Assembly (NCBI GenBank): GCA_041651035.1
Contig: JBAZKC010000003.1
Span: 69,153 to 133,152 of the forward strand
Reading direction: 5' to 3'
DNA length: 64,000 bases
From: Candidatus Omnitrophota bacterium
GTDB taxonomy: Bacteria > Omnitrophota > Gorgyraeia > Gygaellales > Profunditerraquicolaceae
The notes below the pieces were generated by a model. That model was not told where the DNA came from and did not search any database. It was given only the letters and a program-made list of their open reading frames with translations. The position numbers and the translations under genes are program-made. This document shows, piece by piece, positions 7,780 to 57,436 of the stretch; positions within the stretch are counted from its first letter, which is position 1; every line of letters starts with the position of its first letter.

Positions 7780-7809
7780 GCGGGGTATGTCCGAATTCAA
7801 GGAGCCAAG

Positions 7810-9396: not shown

Positions 9397-10226
9397 TCAG
9401 GAAATCCTTCTGTTTATTGTTTGCCGCCGGGATTATTTTTACCGGCCTGGCCTGCGCTAAAACAAATAAGGCCAGCCTTTTGGTTATCAGCCCCAAGGAC
9501 TGCCTAACCTGTAATACCGAAACGGTGGTTAACTTCTTAAAAAGGCAGTTTACGGATTTGAAAGTTTCCTATCTTTATTATCCTGACAGAAGGTCAGAGA
9601 AGCTGATCAAGAAACTGGGCATATCGGCTTTACCAGCTTATCTTTTAGGTAAACAGGCCAAAAGAGAAGCTAATTTCGGCAGCCTGAAAAGAAACCTGGA
9701 GATAAAAGGCGGGTTCTATATGTTGAAACCTCAATTCAGCGGGTTTTCTTATCTTGCCAATAGAAATAAAATAAAGGGTAAATTGGACCTGTTCATAAGT
9801 TTATACAGCAAGAATACCGGCGGGATATTGGAGGCGGTAAGAGAATTCAATCCTACCGTGCATTTTCTGGCAGTGGAGCAGGGGGATGGTTTTGACGCGG
9901 CAAAGGGAGAAAAAGAAGTAGAAGAATGCCTGCGGGCGGTATGCGTTCAGAAATATTATCCTAAAACCTTCCCGGATTATATCAGCTGCAGGGCGGGAAA
10001 TATTAATTCGCCGCGGTACGAACGCTGCCTGCCAAAAGCAGACGCGCAAAAAATAAAAAAATGCGCCTTAGGCAGCCAAGGGTATACTCTTTTAAAAGAA
10101 AATATAATCCTTAACAAAGAGCTTCAGGTTATGTTCGGCCCCGTGTATCTTTTGGATAACCAGGAGGTATTTAGTTCAAACGGCGTGCCGGCAAAAGAGG
10201 AATTAAGAAAGATAATAAAGAGGTGA
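9393..10226 (+). CDS. hypothetical secreted protein; possible thioredoxin-like CxxC protein
   Basis: Signal peptide MIRKSFCLLFAAGIIFTGLACA. CLTC motif near N-terminus of mature protein, several further Cys. No family recognised. Confidence 0.5.
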   Translation: MIRKSFCLLFAAGIIFTGLACAKTNKASLLVISPKDCLTCNTETVVNFLKRQFTDLKVSYLYYPDRRSEKLIKKLGISALPAYLLGKQAKREANFGSLKRNLEIKGGFYMLKPQFSGFSYLANRNKIKGKLDLFISLYSKNTGGILEAVREFNPTVHFLAVEQGDGFDAAKGEKEVEECLRAVCVQKYYPKTFPDYISCRAGNINSPRYERCLPKADAQKIKKCALGSQGYTLLKENIILNKELQVMFGPVYLLDNQEVFSSNGVPAKEELRKIIKR

Positions 10227-10229
10227 TAT

Positions 10230-11468
10230 ATGGATGCTAAACCCAAGATCTATATAATTGATGTGACTAACCGCGACGGAGTGCAGACTTCCCGCATCTG
10301 CCTTTCCAAACTGCAGAAGACGATGATAAACCTGTATTTAGATGAGCTGGGGGTATTCCAGTCAGAGTTCGGCTTTCCCGTTACGCGCCATGAGACAAAT
10401 TATTTAAACGCTAATCTGGAATTGGCCAAGAAGGAGGCATTCCATTCTCTAAGATTAGAAGGATGGGTGAGGGCGACAAGAGACGATGTAAAGGCGGCTT
10501 TCCGGTTAGTGCCGCATATAAAACACCTGAACTTGTCTATTTCTACCTCGGACCAGATGATCCTGCATAAATTTAAAGGAAAGCTTGACCATGAGTCGGT
10601 GATAAAAGAAATGAGAGAAGCAGCAGGAGAGGCGATCAGATCCGGAGCCGAATCCATCGGCGTAAACGCCGAGGATGCTTCGCGGACCAGGATGGATTAT
10701 CTGATTGAATTCGCTTTAGCGGCAAAAGAGGCAGGCGCCCACAGGATCCGCTATTGCGATACGTTAGGCTGCGATACGCCTTTTTCTATTTATGAAAGGA
10801 TAAAGCTTCTGGCGGAAGCGACCTCTATGCCTATAGAGATACATTGCCATAATGACTTGGGTCTGGTAGTGGCAAATTCCATTGCCGGGGCAAAAGCCGC
10901 CTGTGATTCAGGAGTAGATGCCTACATAAATACCTGTGTTAACGGCATGGGTGAGCGGGCGGGGAATGCCGATCTGGTTTCGGTGATCTTGAGCCTTAAA
11001 TACGGCAACGGCATGCAGGAATACGCTCTTAGCGAAAAGATCAATTTAAAGGCGGCCTGGAAGATCTGCAAATACGCCTCGTATGCTTTTGGCGTGCCGA
11101 TACCCATAAACCAGCCGGGCGTAGGGGCTAATGCCTTCGCGCATGAATCAGGTATTCATGCCGATGGAGCCTTAAAAGACAGGCGTAACTATGAACTTTA
11201 TGATTTTGAGGAATTAGGGCGGGGAGAGCCGGAGATCATTGAGACCGGACGCAAGATTACCGCGGGTGAATATTCAGGGATCAAGGGTTTTAGGAATGTA
11301 TATGAAAAATTAGAAGTGGAATTCAGCGACAACAAAGAGGCAACAGAAGTCCTGGAATTGGTCAGATACGCCAATGTCCATAACCAGAAGCCGTTAGTAG
11401 ACGATGAGTTGAAATTCATCGCCAAGTATCCGGATATCGCGCGCAAGATATTTACCATGACACCATAA
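10230..11468 (+). CDS. HMGL-like 2-isopropylmalate/homocitrate/citramalate synthase family protein (no LeuA C-terminal regulatory domain)
   Basis: DVTNRDGVQ and HCHNDLGLVVANSIAGAKAA motifs of the DRE-TIM aldolase family. 412 aa. Confidence 0.75.
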   Translation: MDAKPKIYIIDVTNRDGVQTSRICLSKLQKTMINLYLDELGVFQSEFGFPVTRHETNYLNANLELAKKEAFHSLRLEGWVRATRDDVKAAFRLVPHIKHLNLSISTSDQMILHKFKGKLDHESVIKEMREAAGEAIRSGAESIGVNAEDASRTRMDYLIEFALAAKEAGAHRIRYCDTLGCDTPFSIYERIKLLAEATSMPIEIHCHNDLGLVVANSIAGAKAACDSGVDAYINTCVNGMGERAGNADLVSVILSLKYGNGMQEYALSEKINLKAAWKICKYASYAFGVPIPINQPGVGANAFAHESGIHADGALKDRRNYELYDFEELGRGEPEIIETGRKITAGEYSGIKGFRNVYEKLEVEFSDNKEATEVLELVRYANVHNQKPLVDDELKFIAKYPDIARKIFTMTP

Positions 11469-34106: not shown

Positions 34107-34463
34107 ATGGACAAGCTCAAGCTTATTGAACAGGAATATGCTAAAAAAGAGGTGCCGCAGTTTGGCGTGGGCGACACGGTAAAGGTTTTGGTCAGAATAC
34201 CCGAGAGCCCTGATAAAATACGCCTGCATCCTTTTGAAGGGGTGGTTATCGTAAAACAAGGCAGCGGGGTAAAGCAGAGTTTTACGGTGAGGAAAATTTC
34301 CTACGGTGAGGGTATCGAACGTGTCTTTCTTGTGTATTCGCCAAGCATTGAACGCATCGAAGTCATACGTTCGGGCAAGGTAAAGAAAGCCAAGCTTTAT
34401 TATTTAAGAGGCAAGGTTGGAAAGCAAGCTACAAAGATCGAGGCCAGGGAAGAAAAAGAATAA
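34107..34463 (+). CDS. rplS: 50S ribosomal protein L19
   Basis: 118 aa. FGVGDTVKV ... KQSFTVRKISYGEGIERVF. Confidence 0.95.
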   Translation: MDKLKLIEQEYAKKEVPQFGVGDTVKVLVRIPESPDKIRLHPFEGVVIVKQGSGVKQSFTVRKISYGEGIERVFLVYSPSIERIEVIRSGKVKKAKLYYLRGKVGKQATKIEAREEKE

Positions 34464-34468
34464 ATTCC

Positions 34469-35071
34469 GTGCTCTATTACGAGAAAAAGCTGAAGAAGAA
34501 AGGTTTTGACCTGATCATCGGAGTTGATGAGGCAGGCAGGGGGCCCTTGGCAGGGCCTGTGGTAGCGGCGGCAGTGGCATTAAATACCTACCTCTTTAAG
34601 AACCGCATAGATGACTCGAAGAAATTAACCTCCTTAAGCCGGGAGAAAGCGTTCCCGGAGATTATCGATAAATCTGAATTTGGCGTCGGCGTAGTAAATG
34701 AAAAAGTGATCGACCGCGTGAATATCCTGGAGGCTACGCGCATAGCCATGCGGCAGGCAATCGCCTCCCTGTTAGGTAAATTATCTCCTTCTAAAACCCG
34801 GCGCATACATGTTATTGTGGATGGTAATTTAACCCTGGATATCTCCTTGCCATATACCAGTATTATAAAAGGAGACGGCAAGTCCAAGAGTATCGCCTGC
34901 GCTTCCATCCTGGCTAAAGTCATCCGGGACCGGATCATGAAAGCATACGACAAACTATATCCGGAATACGGATTCATCAGGCATAAAGGCTACCCTACAA
35001 ATATGCACAGGGCAGTGTTAAAGAGGATAGGGCCGTCTCTGATCCATAGAAAAAGCTTTTGCGGTGTCTAA
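34469..35071 (+). CDS. rnhB: ribonuclease HII
   Basis: Active-site motif GVDEAGRGPLAGPVVAAAV. Confidence 0.9.
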   Translation: MLYYEKKLKKKGFDLIIGVDEAGRGPLAGPVVAAAVALNTYLFKNRIDDSKKLTSLSREKAFPEIIDKSEFGVGVVNEKVIDRVNILEATRIAMRQAIASLLGKLSPSKTRRIHVIVDGNLTLDISLPYTSIIKGDGKSKSIACASILAKVIRDRIMKAYDKLYPEYGFIRHKGYPTNMHRAVLKRIGPSLIHRKSFCGV

Positions 35072-35444
35072 ACAAAACCTGTATTTGGGTAAAACCGGAG
35101 AAGATCTGGCCGTGGGTTTCTTAAGAGAATCCGGTTATAAGATCATAGCCAGGAATTATAAGACCAGGTTAGGTGAAATAGATATTGTAGCCCGGGAAAA
35201 AGGCGTAGTGTGTTTTGTTGAGGTAAAGACCCGAAGTTCTGATAGGTTTGGGCTTCCCCAGGAAGCGGTTTTAAGAAGCAAGCAGAGGCAGATCTCTAAA
35301 GCGGCGCTTGAATTCCTTAAAAATAATGATCTATTAGGCCAGAGCGCTAGATTTGATGTTGTCTCTGTGGTGTTGGCAGCAGAAGGGCAAAAAATAGATC
35401 TGATCAGGAATGCCTTTGAATTAGACAGGAGTTTTACTTATTAA
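35064..35444 (+). CDS. YraN-family (UPF0102) endonuclease
   Basis: GEDLAVGFLRESGYKIIARNYKTRLGEIDIVA ... CFVEVKTR. Confidence 0.75.
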   Translation: MSKQNLYLGKTGEDLAVGFLRESGYKIIARNYKTRLGEIDIVAREKGVVCFVEVKTRSSDRFGLPQEAVLRSKQRQISKAALEFLKNNDLLGQSARFDVVSVVLAAEGQKIDLIRNAFELDRSFTY

Positions 35445-35448
35445 AAAG

Positions 35449-37143
35449 ATGCTTACAGATATAGAAATAGCCCAAAAGGCAAAAAGAGAACCTATAGAGG
35501 ATATCGCCGGGAAATTAAAGATAAGCAAGAAATATCTTATTCCTTACGGCCGGCATATCGCTAAGATAGATTTAGGTATCTTAGAAGAAATTAAGGCTAA
35601 ACCCCAGGGGAAATATATTCTCGTTACAGCGATCACGCCTACGCCATTAGGAGAAGGTAAGACTGTAACTACTATAGGGCTTTCTATGGCTTTGAATAAA
35701 CTGGGAAAACTGGCTTCCACATGTATCCGGCAGCCTTCTTTAGGCCCTGTATTCGGCATCAAAGGCGGTGCCGCGGGAGGCGGGTATTCCCAGGTTCTGC
35801 CCATGGAAGATTTTAATTTGCATTTTACAGGCGATGTGCATGCCGTAGGTATCGCCCATAATTTGACCGCCGCGTTCCTGGATAACGCTATATTTAAAGG
35901 CAACCGGTTGGATATCTACCCTGATACTATTACCTGGCGCAGGGTCGTGGACGTAAGCGACAGGTTTTTAAGAAATGTGCGCGTTGGTTTAGGCACTAAA
36001 GATGACGGGATCCCCCGCGATACGGGCTTTGATATTACAGTGGCTTCCGAGATCATGGCTATACTTGCTTTAAGCGATAATTTAAAAGACCTGCGCCAGC
36101 GTTTGGGCAGGATTGTCCTGGCTTATACTGTTGACGGCAGGCCAGTCAGTGCCGAGGACATAAAAGTAGCCGGCAGCATGAGCGCGCTTTTAAAAGACGC
36201 TATCAAGCCGAACCTGATACAGACTATTGAAAATACTCCTTGTTTTGTGCACGCGGGGCCTTTTGCTAATATCGCCCACGGGAATAATTCTATATTGGCG
36301 GATAGGATCGCCTTGGCCTTATCCGAGTATGTGGTTACCGAAGCCGGATTCGGGGCTGATTGCGGCGCGGAGAAATTTTTTGATATTAAATGCCGCGCGA
36401 GCGGACTGGTCCCTGACGCGGCGGTAATTGTTTGTTCTATCCGGGCCTTAAAGGCACATAGCGGAAAATTCCGGATAGTTGCCGGTAAACCCCTGGATGA
36501 AGGGCTCATGAAAGAAAACATCCCGGCGATACAGGAAGGCCTGTGTAATTTAGCCAAGCAGATCGAAAATGTTAAGATCTTCGGTGTGCCTGTGGTAGTC
36601 GCGGTCAATGCTTTTAGCACCGATACCGGAAAAGAAATTGAATTCGTTAAGAAGGCGGCCCTGGAATTAGGCGCGGACGGCTGCGAAATAAGTGAAGTCT
36701 GGAAGAAGGGGTCAGAAGGCGGGTTGGATCTAGCCCGGGCAGTAATAAAAGCCGCCGCCTTACCCAAGAAATTTAAATTCCTTTATCCTTTGGATATGGC
36801 TATAAAAGATAAGATCAGGATCATTGCCGCTAAGATATATGGCGCCGCGGATGTAGAATATTCGGATCTGGCTGATGCCAAAATCAAGAAATACACCCAG
36901 ATGGGCTGGGATAAATTGCCTATTTGTATGGCTAAAACGCACCTGTCTCTGTCGCATGACCCCAACTTTAAGGGCCGGCCAAGAGATTTTGTCCTGCCTG
37001 TCAGGGATGTACGCGCCTCTATCGGCGCGGGATTCCTGTATCCGCTTTGCGGGGAAATGAAAACCATGCCGGGCCTGCCCACGCATCCTGTGGGAGAAGG
37101 TATTGACATTGACGGGCAAGGGGAGATCACAGGATTATCATGA
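35449..37143 (+). CDS. fhs: formate--tetrahydrofolate ligase
   Basis: LTDIEIAQ N-terminus, PTPLGEGKTVTTIGL, EAGFGADCGAEKF. 564 aa. Confidence 0.95.
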   Translation: MLTDIEIAQKAKREPIEDIAGKLKISKKYLIPYGRHIAKIDLGILEEIKAKPQGKYILVTAITPTPLGEGKTVTTIGLSMALNKLGKLASTCIRQPSLGPVFGIKGGAAGGGYSQVLPMEDFNLHFTGDVHAVGIAHNLTAAFLDNAIFKGNRLDIYPDTITWRRVVDVSDRFLRNVRVGLGTKDDGIPRDTGFDITVASEIMAILALSDNLKDLRQRLGRIVLAYTVDGRPVSAEDIKVAGSMSALLKDAIKPNLIQTIENTPCFVHAGPFANIAHGNNSILADRIALALSEYVVTEAGFGADCGAEKFFDIKCRASGLVPDAAVIVCSIRALKAHSGKFRIVAGKPLDEGLMKENIPAIQEGLCNLAKQIENVKIFGVPVVVAVNAFSTDTGKEIEFVKKAALELGADGCEISEVWKKGSEGGLDLARAVIKAAALPKKFKFLYPLDMAIKDKIRIIAAKIYGAADVEYSDLADAKIKKYTQMGWDKLPICMAKTHLSLSHDPNFKGRPRDFVLPVRDVRASIGAGFLYPLCGEMKTMPGLPTHPVGEGIDIDGQGEITGLS

Positions 37144-37703
37144 AATATAAAGACGGATCTTTAAAAAAATACCTGGATGACCTGTCAGCAAAGCTTCCCG
37201 CTCCGGGAGGCGGTTCAGCCGCGGCCCTGGGCGCGGCCTTGGGGGCATCTTTGATCAGTATGGTGGTCAATTTTACTTTAGGTAAGCCCCGTTATGCCAA
37301 ATATGAGAAAGAGTTAAAGAATATATTGGAGAAGTCAGAGAAATTAAGAAGCGAGTTTTTAAATTTAGTGGATATGGATGTCGTAGTTTATAAAAGCAAA
37401 AATATGAGAGGCTGCCTGGATATCCCTATTATGGTGGCCCGCCTCTGTTTTGAAGGGATAAAATTATGCCCCGTATTGATAAAAAAGGGGAATGAGGGAT
37501 TAATAAGCGATGTGGCAGTAGCGGCCGCGCTTTTAGAATCAGCCCTGGCTTCGGCGTATTTTAACGTGGAAATAAATTTAAAATGCCTGGGAGATAAAAA
37601 ACTGTCCCGAAGCGTAAGGAAAGAATTAGCGCGGAAGCTGGCCTTGGCCGGTAAAATGAGGCAAAAGACGGAGGAGAGAGTTGGCAAAATTATTAGAGGG
37701 TAA
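37140..37703 (+). CDS. fchA: methenyltetrahydrofolate cyclohydrolase / formiminotransferase-cyclodeaminase-family protein
   Basis: LPAPGGGSAAALGAALGASL cyclodeaminase-domain signature. 187 aa. Confidence 0.7.
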   Translation: MKYKDGSLKKYLDDLSAKLPAPGGGSAAALGAALGASLISMVVNFTLGKPRYAKYEKELKNILEKSEKLRSEFLNLVDMDVVVYKSKNMRGCLDIPIMVARLCFEGIKLCPVLIKKGNEGLISDVAVAAALLESALASAYFNVEINLKCLGDKKLSRSVRKELARKLALAGKMRQKTEERVGKIIRG

Positions 37704-38577
37704 GCCTGTCGCGCGGAATTTACAGGAGAAGATAAGGCTTGAGGTCTTGTCCTTTAAGAAAAAATTAATCCTGGCAAATATCCAGGTGGGCGATAATCCG
37801 GACGCCAGCGCCTACGGGGAATCACAGCGGAGGGCCGCGGAAAAATTAGGCATAGGCTACCGCCTGGAAAGATTAGGCCAGGATACCTCTGAGGAATCTT
37901 TAATAGAGCTTATTCAAAAATTAAGCTTAGATGGTTCTGTAACCGGCATAATTATCCAATTGCCGCTGCCTTCCCAGTTAGATTATAAAAGAATAAGCCA
38001 GTTTATTTCTCCGGAGAAAGATGTGGAAGGCGTGCATCCGGTTAATATAGGCAGGCTGCTGTTAGGAGAATCTGTTCCGCTTGCCAATGAAGGTAAAGGT
38101 GGCCGGGCCGTTGGCGGATTATCTTTGATGCCTTGTACACCCGCGGCAGTTATGGAGCTGTTAAAAGAAACAGGTATAGACCTTCATGGCAAGGAAGCCG
38201 TGGTAGTAGGCCGCAGCCAGATCGTAGGCAAGCCTTTGGCAATGATGTTGCTGGCTAAATCAGCCACAGTTACGATCTGCCATGGCGGGACATCTAAAGC
38301 TAAGAAGTTAGAAGAGCATATAAAGCGTGCTGAAGTTTTAATCGCGGCAGTAGGCAAGCCCGGCTTTATAAAAGGAAAATGGATCAAAAAAGGCGCCGTG
38401 GTGATAGATGTGGGTATAAACTACTTGGGAGATAAAATTGTAGGTGATGTGGAGTTTGAGGCAGCAGAAAAGCGCGCTTCCTGGATCACTCCTGTTCCCG
38501 GAGGAGTAGGGCCCTTGACAGTAACAATGCTGATGCGTAATTTAGTTACGGCGGCAAAATTACAGGGGCTGTCATGA
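37681..38577 (+). CDS. folD: bifunctional 5,10-methylene-THF dehydrogenase/5,10-methenyl-THF cyclohydrolase
   Basis: MAKLLEGKPVA N-terminus, VVVGRSQIVGKP, PVPGGVGP. Confidence 0.9.
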   Translation: MAKLLEGKPVARNLQEKIRLEVLSFKKKLILANIQVGDNPDASAYGESQRRAAEKLGIGYRLERLGQDTSEESLIELIQKLSLDGSVTGIIIQLPLPSQLDYKRISQFISPEKDVEGVHPVNIGRLLLGESVPLANEGKGGRAVGGLSLMPCTPAAVMELLKETGIDLHGKEAVVVGRSQIVGKPLAMMLLAKSATVTICHGGTSKAKKLEEHIKRAEVLIAAVGKPGFIKGKWIKKGAVVIDVGINYLGDKIVGDVEFEAAEKRASWITPVPGGVGPLTVTMLMRNLVTAAKLQGLS

Positions 38578-39443
38578 CTTTTAAAGAGAAGCTGCAATCA
38601 GGGAAATTCTTGGTTACTTCAGAGATCGGCCCGCCCAAAGGAATAGAAACCAAGGCAATATTGGAGAATGCCGAACTTATCCGCGGCAGGGTTGACGCGA
38701 TGAATGTTACTGACCTGCAGAGTTCAATGCTGCGGTTAGGTTCTTTGGCGGTATGCGCGCTCTTAAAACAAAAAGGTTTTGAGCCGATATTACAGGTTAC
38801 CTGCCGTGACAGGAACCGCCTCGCGCTGCAATCCGATATATTGTCAGCGGCATCCCTGGGGATAGGAAACCTGCTTATCTTAACCGGAGACCATCCCGCG
38901 CTAGGAGACCATCCTGAAGCAAAGCCGGTGTTTGACCTGGATTCAGTGCAGCTTTTACAGGCCGCGCGGAAACTTCAGGAAGGTTCTGACATGAATGGCA
39001 ATAAATTAGAGGGGGCTTCGCCAAAATTCTGCATGGGGGCGGTAATTAACCCCGGCGCAGACCCCATAGAGCCGCAGATAATTAAAATGGAAAAGAAGAT
39101 TGCTGCCGGCGCTGAGTTTTTCCAGACGCAGCCGGTCTATGATATAAAGGCCTTTCTAGGTTTCTTAAATAAGATAAAACACTTGAAAACCGTTATATTA
39201 GCGGGGGTGGTTATTCTAAAGTCCGCCGATATGGCAAGGTATATGAATAAAAATATCCCGGGAGTATTCGTGCCCGATAACCTGATAAAAGAAATGGAAG
39301 AGGCCAAAAACAGGACGGAGAAATCAATAGAGATCGCCGCCCGGCTGATAAAAGAGTTAAAAGGTGCCTGTCAGGGTGTCCATATTATGCCCATCGGCCA
39401 GGATAAAATTCTTCCTCGCCTCCTGGATGCCTCCGGACTATAA
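38574..39443 (+). CDS. metF: 5,10-methylenetetrahydrofolate reductase (short acetogen-type MetF)
   Basis: TSEIGPPKG ... ILQVTCRDRNR ... LILTGDHP motifs. 289 aa. Confidence 0.8.
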   Translation: MTFKEKLQSGKFLVTSEIGPPKGIETKAILENAELIRGRVDAMNVTDLQSSMLRLGSLAVCALLKQKGFEPILQVTCRDRNRLALQSDILSAASLGIGNLLILTGDHPALGDHPEAKPVFDLDSVQLLQAARKLQEGSDMNGNKLEGASPKFCMGAVINPGADPIEPQIIKMEKKIAAGAEFFQTQPVYDIKAFLGFLNKIKHLKTVILAGVVILKSADMARYMNKNIPGVFVPDNLIKEMEEAKNRTEKSIEIAARLIKELKGACQGVHIMPIGQDKILPRLLDASGL

Positions 39444-39445
39444 CA

Positions 39446-42400
39446 ATGGCTAAAATACTTATCATTGGTAATTCCGCGGCGGGTTTTTCCACCTGCGAAA
39501 ATCTGCTTAAGGGATCTCCTGCCCAGGAAATAACCGTTATCTCTAAAGAAGAATATCCGGCGTATAAAAGGTACTTGCTTGCCGATTATTTAAGCGGATC
39601 GGTAAAGGATGATGAGCTTTTTTTATGCGGCGCGGATTATTATAAGAAAAATAATATAAATTTCCTGCCCGGATCAGAGGTGGAGAGGCTAGATACCAGG
39701 AAACAGAGGATAATTTTAAAAGGCAATACTAAGATCAATTATGATTATCTGGTTATTGCCTCAGGCTCAGTGATCAAACTTCCTGATATACCCGGTAAGG
39801 CCAAAGACGGAGTAGTGGCTTTTTATACGCTAAAAGACGCAAAGCTGGTTAAAGATAAATTGATGCTCGCTCAGACTGTATGTGTTATAGGACAGGATGA
39901 GGCGGCTTTAAAGATCGCTGAGGCAGCCGCGCTAAGAGGTAAAGAGGTCAAGATCGTCGCTTACGCGGATTTTGTTTATCATGGCCAGAATGACAAAATA
40001 GAGTTAATTTCCGGAGCGCAGCCGCAGGAATTTATAGGAGAAGGAGCTTTGCAGGCGTTGAAATTAAGCAGCGGTAAGGTTATCGGGACTAACCTGGTAT
40101 TAGTAGCCGGAGGCCGCATCCCTTCGACAGGTTTCTTAAAAGAGTCAGATATAAAAACCGATCAGGGTTATATTATAGTAGATGATAATATGCGCACGAA
40201 CCTTAAAAACGTGTTTGCCTGCGGCAGCGTTTGTAAAAAAGAAGGTTCTCCGGCAGCAGAAAAGACCTGGGAAGAATCTGTTCGTGAGGGAACTTTGGCC
40301 AGCCGGCATTTGATCAATCTGCTGGAAGGAAAAAGCGAAGGTGCTATGTCATTAGATGATTTAATTCAGCTTGCCGCTACAGGCAGGCAGGCAATATTAA
40401 AAGCCGCCCAAGATGCCGTAGAGGCGGCGATAAAAGAGAAAGGCGCCAGCCATAACATAGGATTTCCGGAAACTAATTATTATCTGCCTTTGATAAACGC
40501 GTTATTAAAATTAGAGGTCAAAGATTTAGGCGGATGCCTGGAGTCTTTAAAACAGATCAAGGACTTAGGCGATAATAAAGCAGCTCCTGGCAGCCTCAAC
40601 GTCGATTCTTTAGGCGGCCTGCTTAACCAGGGATTAGCAACTCTTCTTTGCGAAGAGATCTTAGCGGCGCTTAAATATTCAAATAAAGAGCATCCGCGGG
40701 AGAATTATGCCGGATTCCTGCCGGATACATTATTAAGGTCGCTGGGTATCCAGCTTGTAGATGGCAGGATAGCCGGTATTGCCGTAATATTAGGCGCGGC
40801 TCCTGATGAAGATTCGGCAGTGCGCCTGATAAGGGATTTCCAAAGCAGGAGCATCGTGAGTATCCTGGCGGGGAATATAGACGGCAGGAGCCTGAAGAAG
40901 CAGTTAGAGAGCAAAAATATAGAAATAGGTTTGGATAATTATATAGTGGCTTTAGGCGAAGATTACCTATCCGCGATTTACGCGGTCAACTGGGCGGTAA
41001 GGGCGCCGTTAATGTATGGCGGGATAAAAAGCGGGCAGTGGGGAGACATTCTCAAATACACCCGGCAGAAAGTCCCCGCGTTTGTCCTGCTCCTGGGGCA
41101 TGTAGACGAGGTTTTAGCGGCTACGGGCCTGGGGGCTTTAGCCATGGGTTTTCCTATTATTACAGATTTAGATATTCCCCAGCTGGGCAAGATCGATACT
41201 ACTTTATTTGAAGCCCTGGTCACGGAAAAGGATTATACGAAACTGGCGGCAAAATGCATAGAGATAAGAGGGCTTAAGGTAAAGATCACCCGCGTTCCCG
41301 TGCCGGTACCTTACGCGGCGGCATTTGAAGGCGAGCGTGTCAGGAAAGAACAATTGCATGCTGAGTTCGGAGGAAAGAGCAGCACGGCTTTTGAATATTT
41401 GACTACTAAAGAAACCGGCGCGGTTGAAGACGGTAAGGTAGAATTGATAGGCCCGGATATAGATTGCCTTGAAAAAGGCAGTAAGTCTATGCCGCTGGCG
41501 ATAGTAGTTGAGGTAGCCGGACGCAAGATGCAAAAGGATTTTGAGCCTATCCTGGAACGCCAGATACACCGTTTTATGAATTACGCTATGGGCCTGATGC
41601 ATATCGGCCAGCGCGATATGAACTGGATCAGGATAAGTAAAGATGCCTTTAATAAGGGCTTCAGGCTAAAACATATCGGCGTGATACTGCACGCCATGTT
41701 ACATCAGGAATACGGCGCTATCGTGGACAAAGTGCAGGTCAGGCTTTATACGCGGCAAGCTGACCTGGAGGGATTATTAGCCGGAGTAAAGAAGGTTTAT
41801 GATGAGCGCGATGAACGCATAAGCGGCATGGTAGATGAGAGCGTGGATACGTTTTATTCGTGTTTATTATGCCAGTCATTTGCCCCTAATCACGTTTGCG
41901 TTGTTACGCCTGAACGCTTAGGATTATGCGGCGCGTATTCCTGGCTGGACGCGAAAGCCTCTTTTGAGATCACTCCTACAGGGCCGAATCAACCCATAAT
42001 AAAAGGCCCTATACGCGATGAGAGGTTGGGCCAGTGGGATAATATCAACGAATTCGTGGCACAGAAGTCCAATAAGACTGTTGAGAGTGTGAGCATGTAT
42101 TCACTAATGGTAGCTCCCCAGTCTTCCTGCGGTTGTTTTGAGTGTATCGTCGCGATAATCCCGGAGGCAAACGGGGTGATGGTTGTGCACCGCGATCATT
42201 CGGGCCAGACGCCATGCGGGATGACCTTTACCGCTTTAGCCGGATCGGTAGGCGGAGGGATCCAGACTCCGGGTTTCCTGGGTGTGGGCAAATTATATAT
42301 ATTAAGCAAGAAATTTATCTTGGCTGAGGGCGGCCTTAAACGCGTTGTCTGGATGCCTAAGGAATTAAAAGAGGCCCTAGGTGATAAATTGAAGAAACGG

Positions 42401-42532
42401 GCGGAAGAGCTGGGAAGCCCGGATCTGATTGATAAGATCGCGGACGAAACCATAGCTACGACAACAGAGGATTTGCTAAGGTTCCTGGAAAAAGTAAGCC
42501 ATCCCGCCCTGGGTATGGAACCGATAATGTAA
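39446..42532 (+). CDS. fusion protein: N-terminal FAD-type pyridine nucleotide-disulfide oxidoreductase-like domain (~300 aa) + full-length bacterial acetyl-CoA synthase (AcsB, CODH/ACS beta subunit, ~728 aa)
   Basis: N-terminus KILIIGNSAAG..YPAYKRYLL (FAD Rossmann, ferredoxin-reductase/NirB-like). C-terminal 728 aa carry AcsB motifs GFPETNYYLPLI, GRKMQKDFEPILERQIHRFMNY, A-cluster cysteines CLLCQSFAPNHVCVVTPERLGLCGAYSWLDAKASFEI and SSCGCFEC, and C-terminus IDKIADETIATT..HPALGMEPIM. Confidence 0.8.
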   Translation: MAKILIIGNSAAGFSTCENLLKGSPAQEITVISKEEYPAYKRYLLADYLSGSVKDDELFLCGADYYKKNNINFLPGSEVERLDTRKQRIILKGNTKINYDYLVIASGSVIKLPDIPGKAKDGVVAFYTLKDAKLVKDKLMLAQTVCVIGQDEAALKIAEAAALRGKEVKIVAYADFVYHGQNDKIELISGAQPQEFIGEGALQALKLSSGKVIGTNLVLVAGGRIPSTGFLKESDIKTDQGYIIVDDNMRTNLKNVFACGSVCKKEGSPAAEKTWEESVREGTLASRHLINLLEGKSEGAMSLDDLIQLAATGRQAILKAAQDAVEAAIKEKGASHNIGFPETNYYLPLINALLKLEVKDLGGCLESLKQIKDLGDNKAAPGSLNVDSLGGLLNQGLATLLCEEILAALKYSNKEHPRENYAGFLPDTLLRSLGIQLVDGRIAGIAVILGAAPDEDSAVRLIRDFQSRSIVSILAGNIDGRSLKKQLESKNIEIGLDNYIVALGEDYLSAIYAVNWAVRAPLMYGGIKSGQWGDILKYTRQKVPAFVLLLGHVDEVLAATGLGALAMGFPIITDLDIPQLGKIDTTLFEALVTEKDYTKLAAKCIEIRGLKVKITRVPVPVPYAAAFEGERVRKEQLHAEFGGKSSTAFEYLTTKETGAVEDGKVELIGPDIDCLEKGSKSMPLAIVVEVAGRKMQKDFEPILERQIHRFMNYAMGLMHIGQRDMNWIRISKDAFNKGFRLKHIGVILHAMLHQEYGAIVDKVQVRLYTRQADLEGLLAGVKKVYDERDERISGMVDESVDTFYSCLLCQSFAPNHVCVVTPERLGLCGAYSWLDAKASFEITPTGPNQPIIKGPIRDERLGQWDNINEFVAQKSNKTVESVSMYSLMVAPQSSCGCFECIVAIIPEANGVMVVHRDHSGQTPCGMTFTALAGSVGGGIQTPGFLGVGKLYILSKKFILAEGGLKRVVWMPKELKEALGDKLKKRAEELGSPDLIDKIADETIATTTEDLLRFLEKVSHPALGMEPIM

Positions 42533-42538
42533 TAGTAA

Positions 42539-42685
42539 GTTATGCGTTATCCCGTCTCGTAAAACACATAAAAATTCTCTTTAGTTTCCTTCGGAAACTT
42601 TGATAATTTTTATGTACTCGGCGGGATAATTCGCGCATATAACTTACGTTGCGCTTCGCACGAACGTAAGTTATGCGCTCATTAA
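42539..42685 (+). repeat. copy B of the repeated structured intergenic element
   Basis: Same motif order as copy A: CTCGTAA, AAAATTCTCTT, AGTTTCC-TTC-GGAAACT hairpin, core TCGGCGGGATAATTCGC (42618-42634). Long 3' hairpin CGCATATAACTTACGTT / AACGTAAGTTATGCG, ending GCTCATTAA. Its 5' boundary GTAAGTTATGCG is a 12/12 direct repeat of the hairpin's right arm. Confidence 0.45.
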
Positions 42686-42693
42686 ATTTTTCC

Positions 42694-42721
42694 TTGACGA
42701 AGCGCGTTTACAGTGTATAAT
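42694..42721 (+). promoter_or_regulatory. sigma70-like promoter with extended -10 (TTGACG-16 nt-TGTATAAT) for the TPR gene
   Basis: TTGACG at 42694-42699, TGTATAAT at 42714-42721, 13 nt before the 42735 start. Confidence 0.5.
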
Positions 42722-42734
42722 ATTTTCAAAACAA

Positions 42735-50847: not shown

Positions 50848-51649
50848 GCTTCTATTTACTGAAGTATTAAATTGCGATAGGCTGTCTTTATTCTTAAACA
50901 AAGGGTCTTGTTTAGATAAAGATAAGTCAGCTTATATAGCTTCGGTCTTAAAAAGAAGGTCCGCGGGCGAACCGATCCAATACATTTTGGGCAAGGCAGA
51001 ATTTATGGGGCTGGAGTTTAAAGTAAATAAAGATACGCTCATACCGCGTCCTGAAACGGAGATCTTAGTTGAAGAAACTTTAGAAGCCGCCCGAGAGTTC
51101 TTAATGCCCCCGAGGGATCGCGGATTGAATATGCTGGATATGGGGACAGGCTCCGGTTGTATTGCTGTATCCCTGGCTAAGCTTATGCCCAAAGTAAAGA
51201 TAGATGCCGTGGATATATCGGAAAAAGCGTTAAAGACAGCCGGAGAAAACGCCAGGTCAAACAGCGTTATTGAAAATATCAAGTTTATTCAGAGTGACCT
51301 GTTTACGAATCGCAGATTACGGTTTATGAATTACGATATGATCATAAGCAACCCTCCATATGTGGCTACCGCCGAAATTGGTGATCTACAGCCGGAGATA
51401 AAGCATGAACCGGTTATTTCTTTAGACGGAGGTAAAAGAGGGTTAGACTTTTATCGCAGGATAATAGCAGAAGCGCCGGATTACTTAAAGGATGGCGGGT
51501 TCCTGATCATGGAGATGGGATTTAAACAAAAGGACAGTATAAAAGAAATTTTCCAAAAATCCGGATATTTTGAGATAATAAGGATTGCTAAGGATTATAA
51601 TAATATAGACAGGGTAATAACCGCAAGAATTATAAATAGAAATGGATAA
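50834..51649 (+). CDS. prmC: release factor glutamine N5-methyltransferase
   Basis: SAM motif LDMGTGSGCIA and NPPY (IISNPPYV). Confidence 0.9.
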   Translation: MNEAELLFTEVLNCDRLSLFLNKGSCLDKDKSAYIASVLKRRSAGEPIQYILGKAEFMGLEFKVNKDTLIPRPETEILVEETLEAAREFLMPPRDRGLNMLDMGTGSGCIAVSLAKLMPKVKIDAVDISEKALKTAGENARSNSVIENIKFIQSDLFTNRRLRFMNYDMIISNPPYVATAEIGDLQPEIKHEPVISLDGGKRGLDFYRRIIAEAPDYLKDGGFLIMEMGFKQKDSIKEIFQKSGYFEIIRIAKDYNNIDRVITARIINRNG

Positions 51650-52907
51650 GCTGATTATTGAAGGCGGGATAAAACTTAAAGGCGAGGTAACAGTTTCGGG
51701 CGCTAAGAACGCGGTATTGCCGATACTGGCGGCGACATTATTGACTGATGATGCCTGTATAATTAAAGGTGTGCCCAACCTGCGCGATACCAATACCATG
51801 CTTAAGATCTTGCGTTCGTTGGGCAAGAACGCGGATATGGAGAAAGGCGTAGCAGTAGTCTCATCAGGAACCAGGAACATAAATCACATCGCTGACTATA
51901 AGCTTGTCTCTACGATGCGCGCCTCTTTCTGTGTTTTAGGCCCGTTAATAGGTAAACTCAGGAAAGCAAAGGTCTCTTTGCCGGGAGGATGTATTATAGG
52001 TGTCAGGCCCGTAGACCTGCATATCAAAGGCCTGGAAGCCCTGGGCGTGGATATTGATATAGAGGCCGGTTATGTAGTAGCAAAAGCGGATAAGCTTAAA
52101 GGCGCGTATATGTATTTAGGCGGTGTTTACGGTTCATCGGTCCTGGCTACGGATAACGTGATGATGGCAGCGGTATTAGCCAAGGGCAAGACCATAATAG
52201 AATCCGCGGCTTGCGAACCTGAGGTCCAGGACTTGGCGGAATTCCTGATAAAAATGGGCGCTAAGATCAAAGGCCACGGCACGCCGGTCATAGAAATTGA
52301 AGGCGTAAAGCACCTGCATGGAGCGACTCATACCATAATCCCCGACAGGATAGAGGCAGGCACATTAATGATAGCCGCTTTGATCACCCGCGGCGATATC
52401 CTCATAAAGAACATTCTGCCCCAGCACCTGGGAGCGGTAATTGATAAATTGCAAGAAGCAGGCGCCTGTATAACCAGGACAGATACATCCATGCGGGTGC
52501 GTTATAAGAAGCAGCTTAAGCCCGTCAATATTACTACGCTTCCTTATCCGGGTTTTCCCACGGATATGCAGGCGCAGATCATGGGTTTAATGAGCGTAAC
52601 TGGCGGTATAAGCGTGATTAACGAAAAGATCTATCCCGACAGGTTCATGCATGTGGCTGAACTCAACCGTATGGGCGCGCATATCCAGCGGGAAGGGCCT
52701 CATGCTATTATAGAAGGCGTAAAAAGTTTATCCGGAGCTCCGGTTATGGCCTCAGACCTGCGCGCATCCGCTTGCCTGGTCTTAGCAGGGCTGGCTTCAA
52801 GCGGTAAGACTTCGATATCCAGGATTTACCACTTAGAGCGGGGATATGAGAACATCGGAGAGAAGTTAGAAAAGTTAGGTGCCAGGATCGGGAGAGAAAG
52901 AGAATGA
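51642..52907 (+). CDS. murA: UDP-N-acetylglucosamine 1-carboxyvinyltransferase
   Basis: [23 protein letters not shown]-terminus, active-site C in [15 protein letters not shown]. 421 aa. Confidence 0.95.
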
Positions 52908-53467
52908 TCTTGATGATCGATAATTACGATTCATTTACCTATAACCTCGTCCAGTATTTAGGGCTGCTGGGAGCGGATGTTAAGGTATTCAGGAACGATA
53001 AAATAACCATAGGACGGATCAAGGAATTAAGGCCGAAGAAGATTGTTATTTCTCCGGGTCCGGGCAGGCCGGAGAACGCGGGTGTTTCCTGCCAGGTAAT
53101 AAGAGAATTCGCCGGCAATATCCCCATATTGGGTGTTTGCCTCGGCCATCAGGCAATAGGGTTTGTTTACGGCGGGCGTATCATCATAGCAAAAAAACTT
53201 ATGCACGGAAAAACCTCCTTTATTTATCATAATCACAAAGAGATATTTAAAGGCATACCGGATCCTTTTGAAGCTACGCGTTACCATTCTCTCCTGGTAG
53301 ATAAAAAGAGCCTGCCGGATTGCCTAGAGATAACCGCCTGGACAAAAGAGCGGGAGATAATGGGATTGAAACACAAGAAATATCCTTTATGGGGGGTGCA
53401 GTTCCATCCGGAGTCTATCCTGACTAAGTCAGGAAAAGATATATTAAATAATTTTCTAAAGCAATGA
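52904..53467 (+). CDS. trpG: anthranilate/aminodeoxychorismate synthase glutamine amidotransferase component
   Basis: Class I GATase motifs [11 protein letters not shown] and GVQFHPES. Confidence 0.85.
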
Positions 53468-54474
53468 TATTGGAAGCAACGAAAATATTATCAAAAGGCG
53501 GTGATTTAACCGCTTCCGTAATGGAAGCGGTCATGGAAGAGATAATGACGGGTAAGGCGGGCACGCCCCAGATCGTTTCATTCTTAAGCAACCTGAATGC
53601 CCGGGGTGAGACACCGGAAGAATTAGCCGCGGCTGTCCAGGTTATGCGCCGATACGCCACCAGGATACGCACGAAACACAAGGTTGTATTGGATACCTGC
53701 GGGACAGGCGGAGATAAGAAGCACACATTTAATATTTCTACAGCGGCGGCTTTTGTGGCCAGCGGAGCCGGTGTAGCGGTAGCTAAACACGGCAATCGTT
53801 CTGTGTCCAGTAAGTCGGGCAGCGCGGATGTCATGGATGCCCTGGGTATAAATATTAATATGGATAAAGAGCGGCTCGAGGCCTGCCTGGATGATCTTGG
53901 TATCGCTTTTTTATTCGCGCAGAATCTGCATCCGGCAATGAAATACGCCATGGAGGCAAGAAAAACAATAGGCGCTAAGACCATTTTTAATTTCTTGGGC
54001 CCCTTAAATAACCCCGCCAACGCGACGCACCAATTAGTGGGAGTCTATGACAGCGCCTGGGCGCGTAATTTGGCATACACGCTTAAGGACTTAGGGACAA
54101 AACACGCCCTAGTCGTCTGCGGCAGGGATAATTTAGACGAGATAACTACTACGGACTTAACCGATGTTTTTGAAGTACGCGGTAAGAAAGTAGATAAAGA
54201 TACCATAGACTACGCGGCGCTTGGTTTTGCTAAAGCTTGCCCTGAAGATTTAACAGGAGGCGACGCCTCTGCTAATGCCGGGATCATAACCGATATCTTA
54301 AAAGGAAGGCCCGGGCCTAAGAGGGATATTGTAGTGTTAAACGCCGCCGCGGCTATTTATACGGCGGATAAAGCCGGTTCCCTGAAAGAAGGGATCAAAT
54401 TAGCAATTGATTCCATAGATTCCAGGAAAGCGTTAGAGAAACTGGAGTTATTAAGAGACTACTCCCATAGATGA
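53464..54474 (+). CDS. trpD: anthranilate phosphoribosyltransferase
   Basis: [35 protein letters not shown] motifs. Confidence 0.9.
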
Positions 54475-55259
54475 CAAAGCCTGACGTACTAAAAGAGATT
54501 ATCGTTAAGAAGAAAGAGAAGATCCTTCTGGCAAAACAGAATCTTTCCGAAGAAGGCTTAAAAACAAAGATACAGGCTTTGCCGCCCGCCCGGCCTTTTA
54601 TCGAAGCCATAACTAAGCCCCGCCAAATATCCCTTATTGCTGAGATAAAGAAGATGTCTCCTTCCCGCGGGCTGATACGCCAGGATTTTAACCTGCAGGA
54701 TATCGCCAAGGTTTATCAGGAGGCAGGAGTTCAAGCGGTTTCGGTATTGACCGAAGAGGATTATTTTGGAGGCAGTATTTCCTATCTAGAAGAGGTTAAG
54801 GCTTTGGTAGAGGCGCCTTTGTTAAGGAAAGATTTTATCTTAGAGCCTTATCAGGTTTATGAATCCAGGGCTTATGGGGCAGACGCCATACTTTTGATCG
54901 CGGATCTGCTTACTAAAGATAAGTTAACAGAATTAATGCGGATAGCTGAGAGTCTAGGGCTTGATTACCTGGTTGAGGTCCATGATGAAAAAGAATTAAA
55001 GAAGGTTTTGAATTTAGGAGTGCAATTTATAGGCATAAATAATCGTAACTTACGCACCTTAGAGGTAGACTTTAAGGTTACAGAAAAACTTTTTCCTTTG
55101 ATCCCCAAGGATAAGATCGTAGTTGTAGAGAGCGGGATTAAAAGCTATCAGGACATCTTGTTCTTGAAAATACTGGGGGTCCAGGCGGTTTTAGTCGGCC
55201 AGGTGTTTATGGAAGCCCAAGATATAAAGAAGAAGATCGAAGAGATAATGGGATGGTGA
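54471..55259 (+). CDS. trpC: indole-3-glycerol phosphate synthase
   Basis: IAEIKKMSPSRG and LVEVHDEKEL, NNRNLRTLEVD motifs. Confidence 0.9.
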   Translation: MTKPDVLKEIIVKKKEKILLAKQNLSEEGLKTKIQALPPARPFIEAITKPRQISLIAEIKKMSPSRGLIRQDFNLQDIAKVYQEAGVQAVSVLTEEDYFGGSISYLEEVKALVEAPLLRKDFILEPYQVYESRAYGADAILLIADLLTKDKLTELMRIAESLGLDYLVEVHDEKELKKVLNLGVQFIGINNRNLRTLEVDFKVTEKLFPLIPKDKIVVVESGIKSYQDILFLKILGVQAVLVGQVFMEAQDIKKKIEEIMGW

Positions 55260-55883
55260 GTGGCAAAAGTAAAAATATGCGGGATAACTAATTCAGAAGA
55301 CGCGAAAGCCTCGGTGGATGCCGGATGCGACGCGCTCGGATTTGTTTTCTATAAGAAGAGCCCGCGTTATATTGCCCCGGTTAAGGCCAGAGGCATAATC
55401 AGGCAGTTGGGCCGGCGGGTCATAAAAATAGGCGTATTCTTTAACGCGCGTGAAAAAACGATCAGGCGCGCCGTTAAATTATGCGGCCTGGATATGCTGC
55501 AGTTCCATGGTAGAGAATCTCCGGAATTTTGCGCCAGGTTTGACGGCTGTAAAATAATTAAGGTATTCAGAATAAAAGGCTCGGCAGCTCCGGAAAATTT
55601 ATCAAGATATAAAACATCCGCCTATTTATTTGATACGTTTGTAAAGTCTAAAGCGGGCGGGACCGGCAGGAAGTTCGATTGGAAGTTATTAAGCCGGATA
55701 AATAATAAAATCAGCTGTCCGGTATTTTTATCAGGCGGCCTCAACGAAAAGAATGTCCGGGAAGCTGTAAGATCCGCGCGGCCGGACTGGGTAGATGCTT
55801 CTAGTTCTTTGGAAATAAAACCTGGGAAAAAGGACCCGAAGAAGGTCAGAGAGTTTATCAAGGCGGCAGGAGAGAGGGCGTAA
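55260..55883 (+). CDS. trpF: phosphoribosylanthranilate isomerase (GTG start)
   Basis: [13 protein letters not shown] ... [12 protein letters not shown] ... LSGGLN. Confidence 0.85.
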
Positions 55884-55885
55884 AA

Positions 55886-56230
55886 ATGAAGAAATGCCCA
55901 TATTGCGCGGAAAATATACAGGACGACGCCATAAAATGCAGGTTTTGTAACGAGTTCCTTAAAAAGAGATGGCAGAAAAGCTGTTTCTTTAATTGTTTTA
56001 TCGTATTTATCATAGTATTCATATTGGCAGTATTATTTATATACCTTAGCTTGGCGGCATTTAAATTCGCTTTTCATAAGATATTTTTCGTTGAACCTCA
56101 TTTTTCGCAGCATTACCTGTCTTTTACCGGCTACGGCATAGAAGGGGCATTAAAAGAATTCGGCGAGGTTTTCAGGGCGCTTTGGGAAAGAACTCTGGAT
56201 TTTCTTCAGGGTAGCCCCCCGGAATTATAG
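55886..56230 (+). CDS. small zinc-ribbon membrane protein inserted in the trp operon
   Basis: [22 protein letters not shown] (CxxC-x11-CxxC), then one TM helix [17 protein letters not shown]. 114 aa. Sits between trpF and trpB. Confidence 0.5.
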
Positions 56231-56254
56231 CAGGAAATTTTTTAGGAGAGAGAT

Positions 56255-57436
56255 ATGTTACCGGATAAATCAGGGCATTTTAATGGTTTTGGCGGGAGGT
56301 TTGTTCCCGAGACGCTGATCTTTGCCTTAGATGAGTTAGAGAAGGAATACCTTAAGGCAAAGCGCGACAAAAGGTTCATCCGGCAGCTCGCGTATTATTT
56401 TAAAGAATATGCCGGCCGGCCCACTCCATTATACCTTGCCAAGAATTTAAGCAGGCATTTAGGTATAAATAAAATATACCTGAAAAGAGAGGATCTGCTC
56501 CATACTGGAGCGCATAAAATAAATAATACCCTTGGCCAGGTGCTGCTTGCGCTTAGAATGAAGAAGCCGCGTATTATCGCTGAGACAGGAGCAGGCCAGC
56601 ATGGGGTAGCTACCGCTACAGTCGCGGCATTGTTTGGCCTTAAGTGTGATATCTATATGGGTACAGAAGATATCGAGAGGCAGAAATTAAACGTCTTTCG
56701 GATGAAGCTATTAGGTGCCCGCGTGATTCCGGTTAAAAGCGGGTCTAAGACCTTAAAAGACGCTATGACAGAGGCGCTAAGAGACTGGGTGACCAATGTG
56801 CGCACAACACATTATATTATCGGCAGTGTCGCCGGGCCGCATCCTTATCCTATGATGGTGCGCGATTTCCAATCGGTGATCGGCAAGGAAGCAAGAAAGC
56901 AGATCTTAGAAAAAGAGAAAAGGCTTCCGGATTATCTGGTTGCCTGCGTAGGCGGCGGCAGTAATGCCATGGGATTGTTCCATCCATTTTTCAAAGACAA
57001 GAAGGTAAAATTCATCGGCGTAGAAGCAGCAGGCCTGGGGCTTGCTTCAGGTAAGCACGCCGCTACCTTGATAGGCGGAATGCCTGGAGTCCTTCACGGC
57101 TCAAAATCCATGGTCCTGGAGGATAAATTCGGGCAGATCAAGATCGCCCACTCTATCGCTGCCGGCTTAGATTATCCCGGGGTAGGCCCGGAGCACGCTT
57201 ATTATAAAAAAATAGGCAGGGCAGCTTACGCGGCAGTTAATGACAAAGAAGCATTGGAAGGTTTTAAATTACTCTCCGAGACAGAGGGGATAATCCCCGC
57301 CCTTGAACCAGCGCACGCTATTTTCTATTTAAAGGCATTGTCCGCTAAAATAAACAGGAATTCTCTTGTTATAGTAAATCTGTCCGGAAGGGGAGATAAG
57401 GATACCTACGCGGTCGCGGAGAGATTAAACTTGTAA
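56255..57436 (+). CDS. trpB: tryptophan synthase beta chain
   Basis: [15 protein letters not shown]-lysine region [17 protein letters not shown]. Confidence 0.95.

Follow-up and report, generated by a model that had tools for sequence, protein, structure and literature searches.

A conserved Omnitrophota locus with Wood-Ljungdahl methyl-branch genes and an AcsB fused to a degenerate FNOR-derived domain

Wood-Ljungdahl gene sets without carbon monoxide dehydrogenase (CODH) and formate dehydrogenase (Fdh) are already known from the Omnitrophota. Seymour et al. 2023 (PMC10066038) describe members of this phylum that possess Fhs, FolD, MetF and AcsB to AcsE and lack formate dehydrogenase, AcsA and CooS/F, and propose formate and CO as substrates. 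The locus treated here lies in a window of 64,000 nucleotides (nt) of a Candidatus Omnitrophota bacterium (contig JBAZKC010000003.1), where the genes fhs, fchA, folD and metF are followed by one reading frame that joins a flavoprotein-like domain to the acetyl-CoA synthase (ACS) AcsB. The window agrees with the partial pathway of the Velamenicoccus archaeovorus type (PMC10066038) in the presence of Fhs, FolD, MetF and AcsB and the absence of formate dehydrogenase, AcsA and CooS/F. A relative of the window species with a stand-alone form of the domain (L060, UBA6233) belongs to the Profunditerraquicolaceae, a family listed there as CODH-less. The same portions of the survey contain no account of the locus architecture, of an FNOR-derived gene beside acsB or of an AcsB fusion.

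The CooS-CooF-FNOR gene cluster, where FNOR denotes an FAD/NAD(P) oxidoreductase, is a second known system (Geelhoed 2016, PMC4703632; Inoue 2019, PMC6344411). The fused domain of the window is homologous to the FNOR of such triplets found at the same genomic position in other Omnitrophota; in contrast to these, the window has neither cooS nor cooF, the motifs and the C-terminal domain of the FNOR are lost, and the remainder is fused to AcsB. The clostridial or acetogen cluster (fhs-fchA-folD-metV-metF-lpdA-...-acsDCEB) shares with the window the order fhs-fchA-folD-metF, a separate FchA beside FolD, and an acsB in the same direction. It differs from the window in metV, rnfC2, hdr/mvhD, acsA, acsC, acsD, acsE and cooC, all of which the window lacks, and in the Pyr_redox_2 gene after metF, which in the window is not LpdA. 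Dehalococcoides mccartyi, reportedly the subject of work by Zhuang and colleagues in PNAS in 2014, is said to have an incomplete Wood-Ljungdahl pathway without MetF, in which the cleavage of acetyl-CoA yields methyltetrahydrofolate (methyl-THF). Both systems have an AcsB without CODH, which raises a possible cleavage or exchange direction or a dependence on free CO; the window differs in having a MetF, and since this MetF is present and conserved, the cleavage rationale of Dehalococcoides is inapplicable here.

The best explanation of the window, with a probability of roughly 0.7, is a phylum-typical partial Wood-Ljungdahl locus whose fused domain is the decayed remnant of a lost CODH module and probably a non-catalytic partner of AcsB. 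The genes and domains in question are the following, with protein lengths in amino acids (aa).

35449-37143, + strand: fhs, formate--tetrahydrofolate ligase, 564 aa (PF01268 FTHFS, 847 bits; NF010030, 806 bits, cut-off 652)
37140-37703, + strand: fchA-like methenyl-THF cyclohydrolase, 187 aa (PF04961 FTCD_C, 154 bits)
37681-38577, + strand: folD, methylene-THF dehydrogenase/cyclohydrolase, 298 aa, TTG start (PF00763 and PF02882, both THF_DHG_CYH domains)
38574-39443, + strand: metF, methylene-THF reductase (MTHFR), 289 aa (PF02219, 108 bits, cut-off 24)
39446-42532, + strand: fusion open reading frame (ORF), 1028 aa (Pyr_redox_2 and full-length AcsB by Pfam and NCBIfam)
39446-40345, + strand: N-terminal domain of the fusion, residues 1-300, degenerate FNOR with a Pyr_redox_2 fold (Pfam, homology, motifs and AlphaFold2 [AF2])
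40346-40348, + strand: Met301, ancestral AcsB start codon, in frame at the fusion junction with GAAGG upstream
40346-42532, + strand: full-length bacterial AcsB, residues 301-1028, with the N-terminal CODH-docking domain present (Pfam, NCBIfam)

The N-terminal domain shows 36% identity over 300 residues with the intact, cooS/cooF-linked FNOR of one relative, L071 (E = 7e-61, 187 bits), compared to 93 bits with the best protein of the Protein Data Bank, the solved flavoenzyme 1XHC. Because of this homology to the FNOR of an intact module, the domain is regarded as a derivative of the FNOR family, and by its motifs it would no longer be a functional member of a CooS-CooF-FNOR module. The NAD(P)H-binding GxGxxG motif is gone (GGGLIG replaced by GQDEAA), as are the redox cysteine pair (YCRCL replaced by YKRYL, within YKRYLL) and the GD motif for FAD (AGD replaced by CGS), and the C-terminal domain of ~115 aa is missing. 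In the comparison with 1XHC, the NAD and GD motifs are altered in the same way. The NAD domain is further shortened by a deletion of 14 residues, and most of the short forms no longer match PF00070, the NAD-binding Pyr_redox family. Intact FNORs and degenerate forms have the same first Rossmann motif, GNSAAG; its departure from GxGxxG had been considered as a sign of a dead FAD site and was dropped, as the intact cooS-linked FNORs share it. AF2 predicts the domain with a local confidence (pLDDT) of ~90, and the two-Rossmann fold superposes on those of ferredoxin reductases, CoADR and AorC with a root-mean-square deviation of ~3 Å. An origin of the Pyr_redox_2 domain from LpdA is ruled out by scores of ~35-38 bits for dihydrolipoyl dehydrogenase models against 95-115 for PadH, NirB and CoADR; the Pyr_redox_2 gene after metF reaches 115 bits with PadH and 111 bits with NirB.

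In the AcsB part of the protein, the A-cluster ligands C806, C809, C818, C828 and C895-G896-C897 are intact and invariant in 41 homologues. Pfam places Pyr_redox_2 at residues 3-269 of the fusion, CODH_A_N at 323-411, CdhC at 619-772 and ACS_CODH_B_C at 785-1028, and the NCBIfam model CODH_ACS_al_bet (NF040764) scores 1000 bits with a cut-off of 800. A Foldseek comparison gives 42-46% identity with the solved ACS structures from C. autoethanogenum, C. hydrogenoformans and M. thermoacetica. Met301 aligns with the start methionine of stand-alone AcsB genes, and a methionine occupies this position in seven of eight fused forms and in the four truncated-fusion forms shown. Three further AcsB homologues from Omnitrophota (P0039, P0114 and P0115) reach 1256-1389 aa and contain intein/LAGLIDADG domains (PF14528, PF14890) inside the synthase.

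The comparison with relatives covers one genome per species of the GTDB, from which the best 80 loci (L005-L084), nearly all labelled Omnitrophota, were taken and their gene order mapped by tblastn with the window proteins. The window species is not among the scanned representatives, and its best match shows 70-77% identity. All 80 loci are colinear and each lies on a single strand, in the order rplS-rnhB-yraN-(fhs)-fchA-folD-(variable small insert)-metF-X-acsB-TPR-polA, where TPR denotes a tetratricopeptide repeat gene and X the position of the domain. Judged by this gene order, the locus is a conserved Omnitrophota arrangement and not an oddity of one genome.

Position X is found in four states. 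In state (a), comprising 12 loci, X is an intact Pyr_redox_2 FNOR of ~420 aa, and all 12 of these proteins carry YCRCL, GGGL[IV]G and [AG]GD together with the C-terminal domain of ~115 aa. A cooF gene precedes the FNOR in 10 of the 12 and cooS is present as well in 8; in L075 and L079 a contig end intervenes or the motif is unmatched. In the 8 loci, the gap of 2.4-2.9 kb between metF and FNOR is filled by cooS (635 aa; TIGR01702, 680 bits) and cooF (145 aa; Fer4_11). The intact cooS-cooF-FNOR triplet between metF and acsB is seen in L070, L071, L074, L077, L080, L082, L083 and L084, at ~7500-11270 in locus coordinates. Among solved structures, the intact FNOR comes closest to the FAD subunit of the aldehyde oxidoreductase (AOR) complex from Aromatoleum, with a match at full length (8c0z_E, 1.4e-58), and its best NCBIfam model is PadH. 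The window domain matches this AorC/PadH-type subunit in fold; by sequence, however, the match covers only residues 2-174, without the NAD(P)H motif or the C-terminal domain.

In state (b), with 32 loci, X is a stand-alone FNOR homologue, mostly of ~290-305 aa, without the cysteine pair, GxGxxG, GD and the C-terminal domain. Thirty of these loci show metF, and in 27 of them the distance from the metF stop to the start of the X gene is at most 36 nt; counted over CODH-less loci, metF and the FNOR-like gene are this close in 28 of 32. State (c) is the in-frame fusion of the ~295-aa form to AcsB; besides the window, the loci L006 and L061 and another seven proteins from metagenomes have it. In state (d), with 29 loci, AcsB bears only an N-terminal extension of 115-141 aa, a remnant of ~120 aa that is homologous to residues 112-219 of the window protein (39% identity, E = 2e-9), which were once the NAD subdomain; these relatives have lost the FAD-binding half. 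YCRCL, GGGL[IV]G and [AG]GD occur in none of the 34 short or fused forms, and neither cooS nor cooF lies within 10 kb of any of them. Among the 80 loci, cooS adjoins acsB only in the 12-locus cooS clade. The AcsB tree (midpoint-rooted neighbor joining, no outgroup) divides into a cooS-bearing and a CODH-less clade and places the fusions of the window and L006 in different subclades. The nearest homologues of the window domain (61% identity) are stand-alone proteins, compared to 44-47% for other fused forms; therefore, the fusion arose more than once.

These states suggest the following course of events. The ancestral order would have been metF-cooS-cooF-FNOR-acsB, with CODH and its CooF/FNOR electron module beside the synthase, and cooS and cooF would have been lost in the lineage of the window. 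The NAD(P)H site, the redox cysteines, the GD motif for FAD and the C-terminal domain would then have disappeared from the FNOR, which stayed beside acsB under purifying selection. Loss of the stop codon between the FNOR relic and acsB would have produced the 1028-aa protein with the old AcsB start methionine inside. The corrinoid iron-sulfur protein (CFeSP) and methyltransferase are presumably encoded elsewhere in the genome, as reported for the phylum, and without CODH the carbonyl carbon would come from free CO, or the enzyme would run in the cleavage or exchange direction. The data show the gene identities, the synteny, the homology of the domain to FNOR, the motif losses and the purifying selection; we infer in which direction the locus evolved, that the domain acts as a scaffold, and the physiology.

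The degenerate domain shows dN/dS values of 0.08-0.22, whereas AcsB and MetF have 0.04-0.08 and the intact FNOR has 0.06; the relic is under purifying selection, relaxed about 2- to 4-fold. On account of this selection, the relic is considered to be retained as a probably non-catalytic partner of AcsB, and its motif losses make a pseudo-enzyme that serves as partner or scaffold the most likely role of the N-terminal domain. Of 46 species, 44 have an undamaged FNOR-type ORF; these intact frames together with the dN/dS values rule out a decaying pseudogene. The two exceptions are L016, where the relic gene is frameshifted (6776-7592), and L044, where it is N-terminally truncated or divergent (10001-10774); these lesions reflect either genuine decay of individual lineages or faulty assembly.

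Several points weigh against a decayed and non-catalytic remnant. The purifying selection on the relic is clear. The relic keeps an N-terminal GxSxxG, an acidic residue after β-strand 2 and an A[ST]G motif, so residual FAD binding may persist. The AF2 model of the full fusion, plausible for each domain by itself, reaches a predicted template modeling score (pTM) of only 0.43, in which the packing of the domain on AcsB is not confident, and the scaffold role is correspondingly conjectural. The polarity, loss rather than gain of cooS-cooF, is read mainly from the motif and domain losses. Finally, the span inspected around the window comprises ~79 kb of one contig, and cooS, metV or a second acs cluster may lie elsewhere.

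The earlier note on this DNA had drawn attention to a short MetF without partner next to an ACS with its own flavin domain, and had seen in this a possible sign that electrons for the methyl branch are routed in an unusual manner. The MetF is of ordinary length, its 289 aa covering positions 2-286 of the 287 of PF02219. Among the NCBIfam models it agrees best with the MTHFR half of the bifunctional YitJ-type enzyme (244 bits), and it reaches only 68 bits with the canonical TIGR00676 (cut-off 294), scores that mark it as divergent from the canonical MetF. The best solved relative is the MTHFR of Thermus, with which the Glu, Asp and Gln residues of the EFFPPK, RGD and TQ motifs align. In the scheme of Oppinger et al. 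(PMC8760232), type I MTHFRs consist of MetF alone and types II to IV require MetV; the gene context in the window is formally type I, MetF only. No metV, rnfC2 or hdrCBA-mvhD is found near metF in the gene calls of the ~79 kb, and the 80 species loci show neither MetV nor another MTHFR partner over a distance of 10 kb. The metF gene is kept in 70 of the 80, the other 10 being contig ends or cases in which it was undetected.

A working flavin module that supplies AcsB or the partner-less MetF, either in place of partners of the MetV/Hdr/Rnf type or for activation of the A-cluster, would take up this missing partner, and it is in keeping with the constant position of the domain gene directly between metF and acsB, the purifying selection, the confidently predicted fold and the GNSAAG motif shared with intact FNORs. 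Against it, all 34 short or fused forms have lost GxGxxG, GD, the cysteine pair and the C-terminal domain, 14 residues of the NAD domain are deleted, and most short forms give no PF00070 match. In addition, 29 species have only the pseudo-NAD subdomain and no FAD-binding half. The position of the domain gene beside metF is accounted for by the deletion of cooS-cooF. A working module is for these reasons improbable, and an NAD(P)H-driven electron input to MetF or the methyl branch is likewise unlikely. The flavin domain on an ACS, tempting as a new electron-routing device, is instead read as a decayed piece of the lost CODH module: it is orthologous to the FNOR of the cooS-cooF-FNOR module at the same position in 12 related species and has lost the NAD(P)H, cysteine and GD motifs. 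The suggestion of the earlier note is not supported.

Of the other readings, the most novel one, although it is doubtful, regards the degenerate FNOR as an obligate accessory subunit of a CODH-independent ACS. Once CooS and CooF were lost, it might have assumed a function that CODH usually has for AcsB. It might stabilize or gate the N-terminal domain and CO channel of AcsB, or a residual flavin might deliver the low-potential electron for the reductive activation of the A-cluster. The relic occurs in stand-alone, fused or truncated form in at least 63 of the 80 species, and a (pseudo-)NAD subdomain attached to or adjoining AcsB is common to all states of X including the ~120-aa stubs. If true, ACS would have a novel type of partner and would operate without CODH in bacteria that are ultra-small and may be predatory.

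Under the preferred explanation of a decayed CODH-module remnant, the relatives present an evolutionary series of CODH loss beside ACS, from the intact cooS-cooF-FNOR-acsB to the stand-alone relic, the fused relic and the 120-aa stub. The retention of the relic in dozens of species raises the question of what a pseudo-flavoprotein supplies to AcsB when CODH is missing. The intact relatives have a CODH wired to a CooF/FNOR module of the NAD(P) type beside AcsB and MetF, a combination absent from current classifications of CODH contexts; their triplet between metF and acsB joins the 'FNOR type' and the 'WLP type' (Wood-Ljungdahl pathway), which are kept separate in the literature. A non-exhaustive literature search gave no account of the order metF-cooS-cooF-FNOR-acsB, of a conserved degenerate FNOR beside AcsB, of its repeated fusion to AcsB or of an ACS-linked pseudo-flavoprotein, and the FNOR relic and its AcsB fusion appear to be new to the literature. 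The locus can also serve as a reliable marker for the annotation of the pathway in Omnitrophota.

The absence of partner genes from the window, already remarked in the earlier note for MetV/Hdr/MvhD and for CODH, CFeSP and methyltransferase, extends to the window plus 10 kb beyond each end (contig positions 61063-140195, ~79 kb): the Pfam-labelled gene calls of this span contain no CODH, CFeSP, methyltransferase, CooC, MetV, Hdr/MvhD or Rnf. Among the recurrent ORFs between folD and polA of the 80 relatives, likewise, no family corresponds to CFeSP (AcsC/AcsD), AcsE or a maturation ATPase. A conventional acs operon with CODH, CFeSP, methyltransferase and AcsB might lie elsewhere and do the real work, the acsB of the window being a secondary or paralogous copy; in favor of this, the inspected span is only ~79 kb of one contig, and some Omnitrophota encode CooS/F according to PMC10066038. 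Against such a copy, acsB lies between metF and TPR-polA in all 80 loci without a non-colinear case, each of the 80 best loci comes from a different assembly so that none contributes two, and AcsB is under strong purifying selection with invariant A-cluster ligands. Published surveys give a single AcsB-E set, and they list 24 species, the family of L060 among them, in which AcsA and CooS/F are missing. The colinearity of the 80 loci therefore marks the acsB of the window as the orthologous ancestral copy and not a stray paralogue, and a secondary copy is rated as quite improbable.

The fusion itself might be an artefact of assembly or sequencing, a miscalled stop codon in a genome that really has two genes as in most relatives. 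The exact fusion protein is found on one contig only, the nearest homologues of its domain are stand-alone, and the old start methionine and the GAAGG, similar to a Shine-Dalgarno sequence, persist at the junction. In-frame fusions of the same architecture, however, occur in at least nine other independent assemblies (P0002-P0006, P0009, P0015, L006, which is the contig of P0005, and L061), and the truncated remnant is permanently fused in 29 species. An artefact is thus very improbable, and even a real one would leave the interpretation of the domain unchanged.

The four methyl-branch genes are consecutive and codirectional and run directly into the ACS fusion, as the earlier note had described and as ORFs, Pfam and NCBIfam confirm. 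Fhs, FchA, FolD and MetF are predicted to lead from formate to methyl-THF, with the A-cluster synthase AcsB encoded next. The FolD and FchA-like proteins exceed the Pfam cut-offs and remain under the cut-off of every NCBIfam equivalog model (146 bits for FchA, cut-off 275), and because of these equivalog scores both are regarded as divergent members of their families. The sequence read directly gives an ATGA overlap between fhs and fchA and another between folD and metF, and fchA and folD overlap by 23 nt with GGAGGAG upstream of the TTG start of folD. These three junctions overlap as formerly stated; the fourth, between metF and the fusion gene, is tight without overlap and consists of a TAA stop, a spacer of 2 nt and ATG. 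Co-transcription of the block is plausible, and the overlapping junctions are consistent with it.

Tight packing extends upstream of fhs, where rplS, rnhB and yraN are equally close-set, and the transcription unit may start upstream of fhs. These genes and the spacer at the other end of the block are the following.

34107-34463, + strand: rplS (Pfam match), housekeeping, same conserved block as fhs
34469-35071, + strand: rnhB (Pfam match), housekeeping, same conserved block
35064-35444, + strand: yraN/UPF0102 (Pfam match), stop codon 4 nt upstream of the fhs ATG
42533-42734, + strand: structured intergenic spacer of 202 nt at the 3' end of the block, nested hairpins with a minimum free energy of -62.5 kcal/mol (z = -5.9)

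The order rplS-rnhB-yraN is shared by 50-53 of the 80 related loci, and fhs lies between yraN and fchA in 17 of the 53 relatives with an intact yraN-fchA junction. The fhs gene is accordingly a variable member of the block, and many relatives must encode it elsewhere or be without it. An overlap of ~20 nt between fchA and folD recurs in most relatives. The variable insert between folD and metF is a 109-aa DMT_6 (DUF486) membrane protein in 16 relatives (e.g., L008, L010, L012, L016, L019, L030 and L031), a DUF975 protein in 7 and a gene similar to tRNA-U5-methyltransferases in 4; the window has none, and MetV is not among these inserts in the 80 relatives.

The promoter scan gave no convincing promoter upstream of fhs, and the counts of the promoter and terminator scan were no higher than those in shuffled sequences. 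The spacer at 42533-42734 contains two nested sets of long inverted repeats; it shows no conservation in the relatives, and Rfam gave no match for it or for the whole window. A sigma-70-like candidate, TTGACG-16-TATAAT at 42694-42721, agrees with the consensus at 11 of 12 positions and is the only strong site of this kind in the region.

The genes around the locus at contig positions 61063-140195 are housekeeping in content, comprising lipopolysaccharide and cell envelope functions, isoprenoid synthesis, translation factors, queuosine, the trp operon, rho, prfA and polA, among others. The ~79 kb are almost wholly encoded on the + strand with a positive GC skew throughout, rpmB being the only gene on the opposite strand in the annotated stretches. 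At 51642-57436 of the window, an aroA-like gene for EPSP (5-enolpyruvylshikimate-3-phosphate) synthase is followed by trpG, trpD, trpC, trpF, an unannotated ORF of 114 aa, trpB and trpA.

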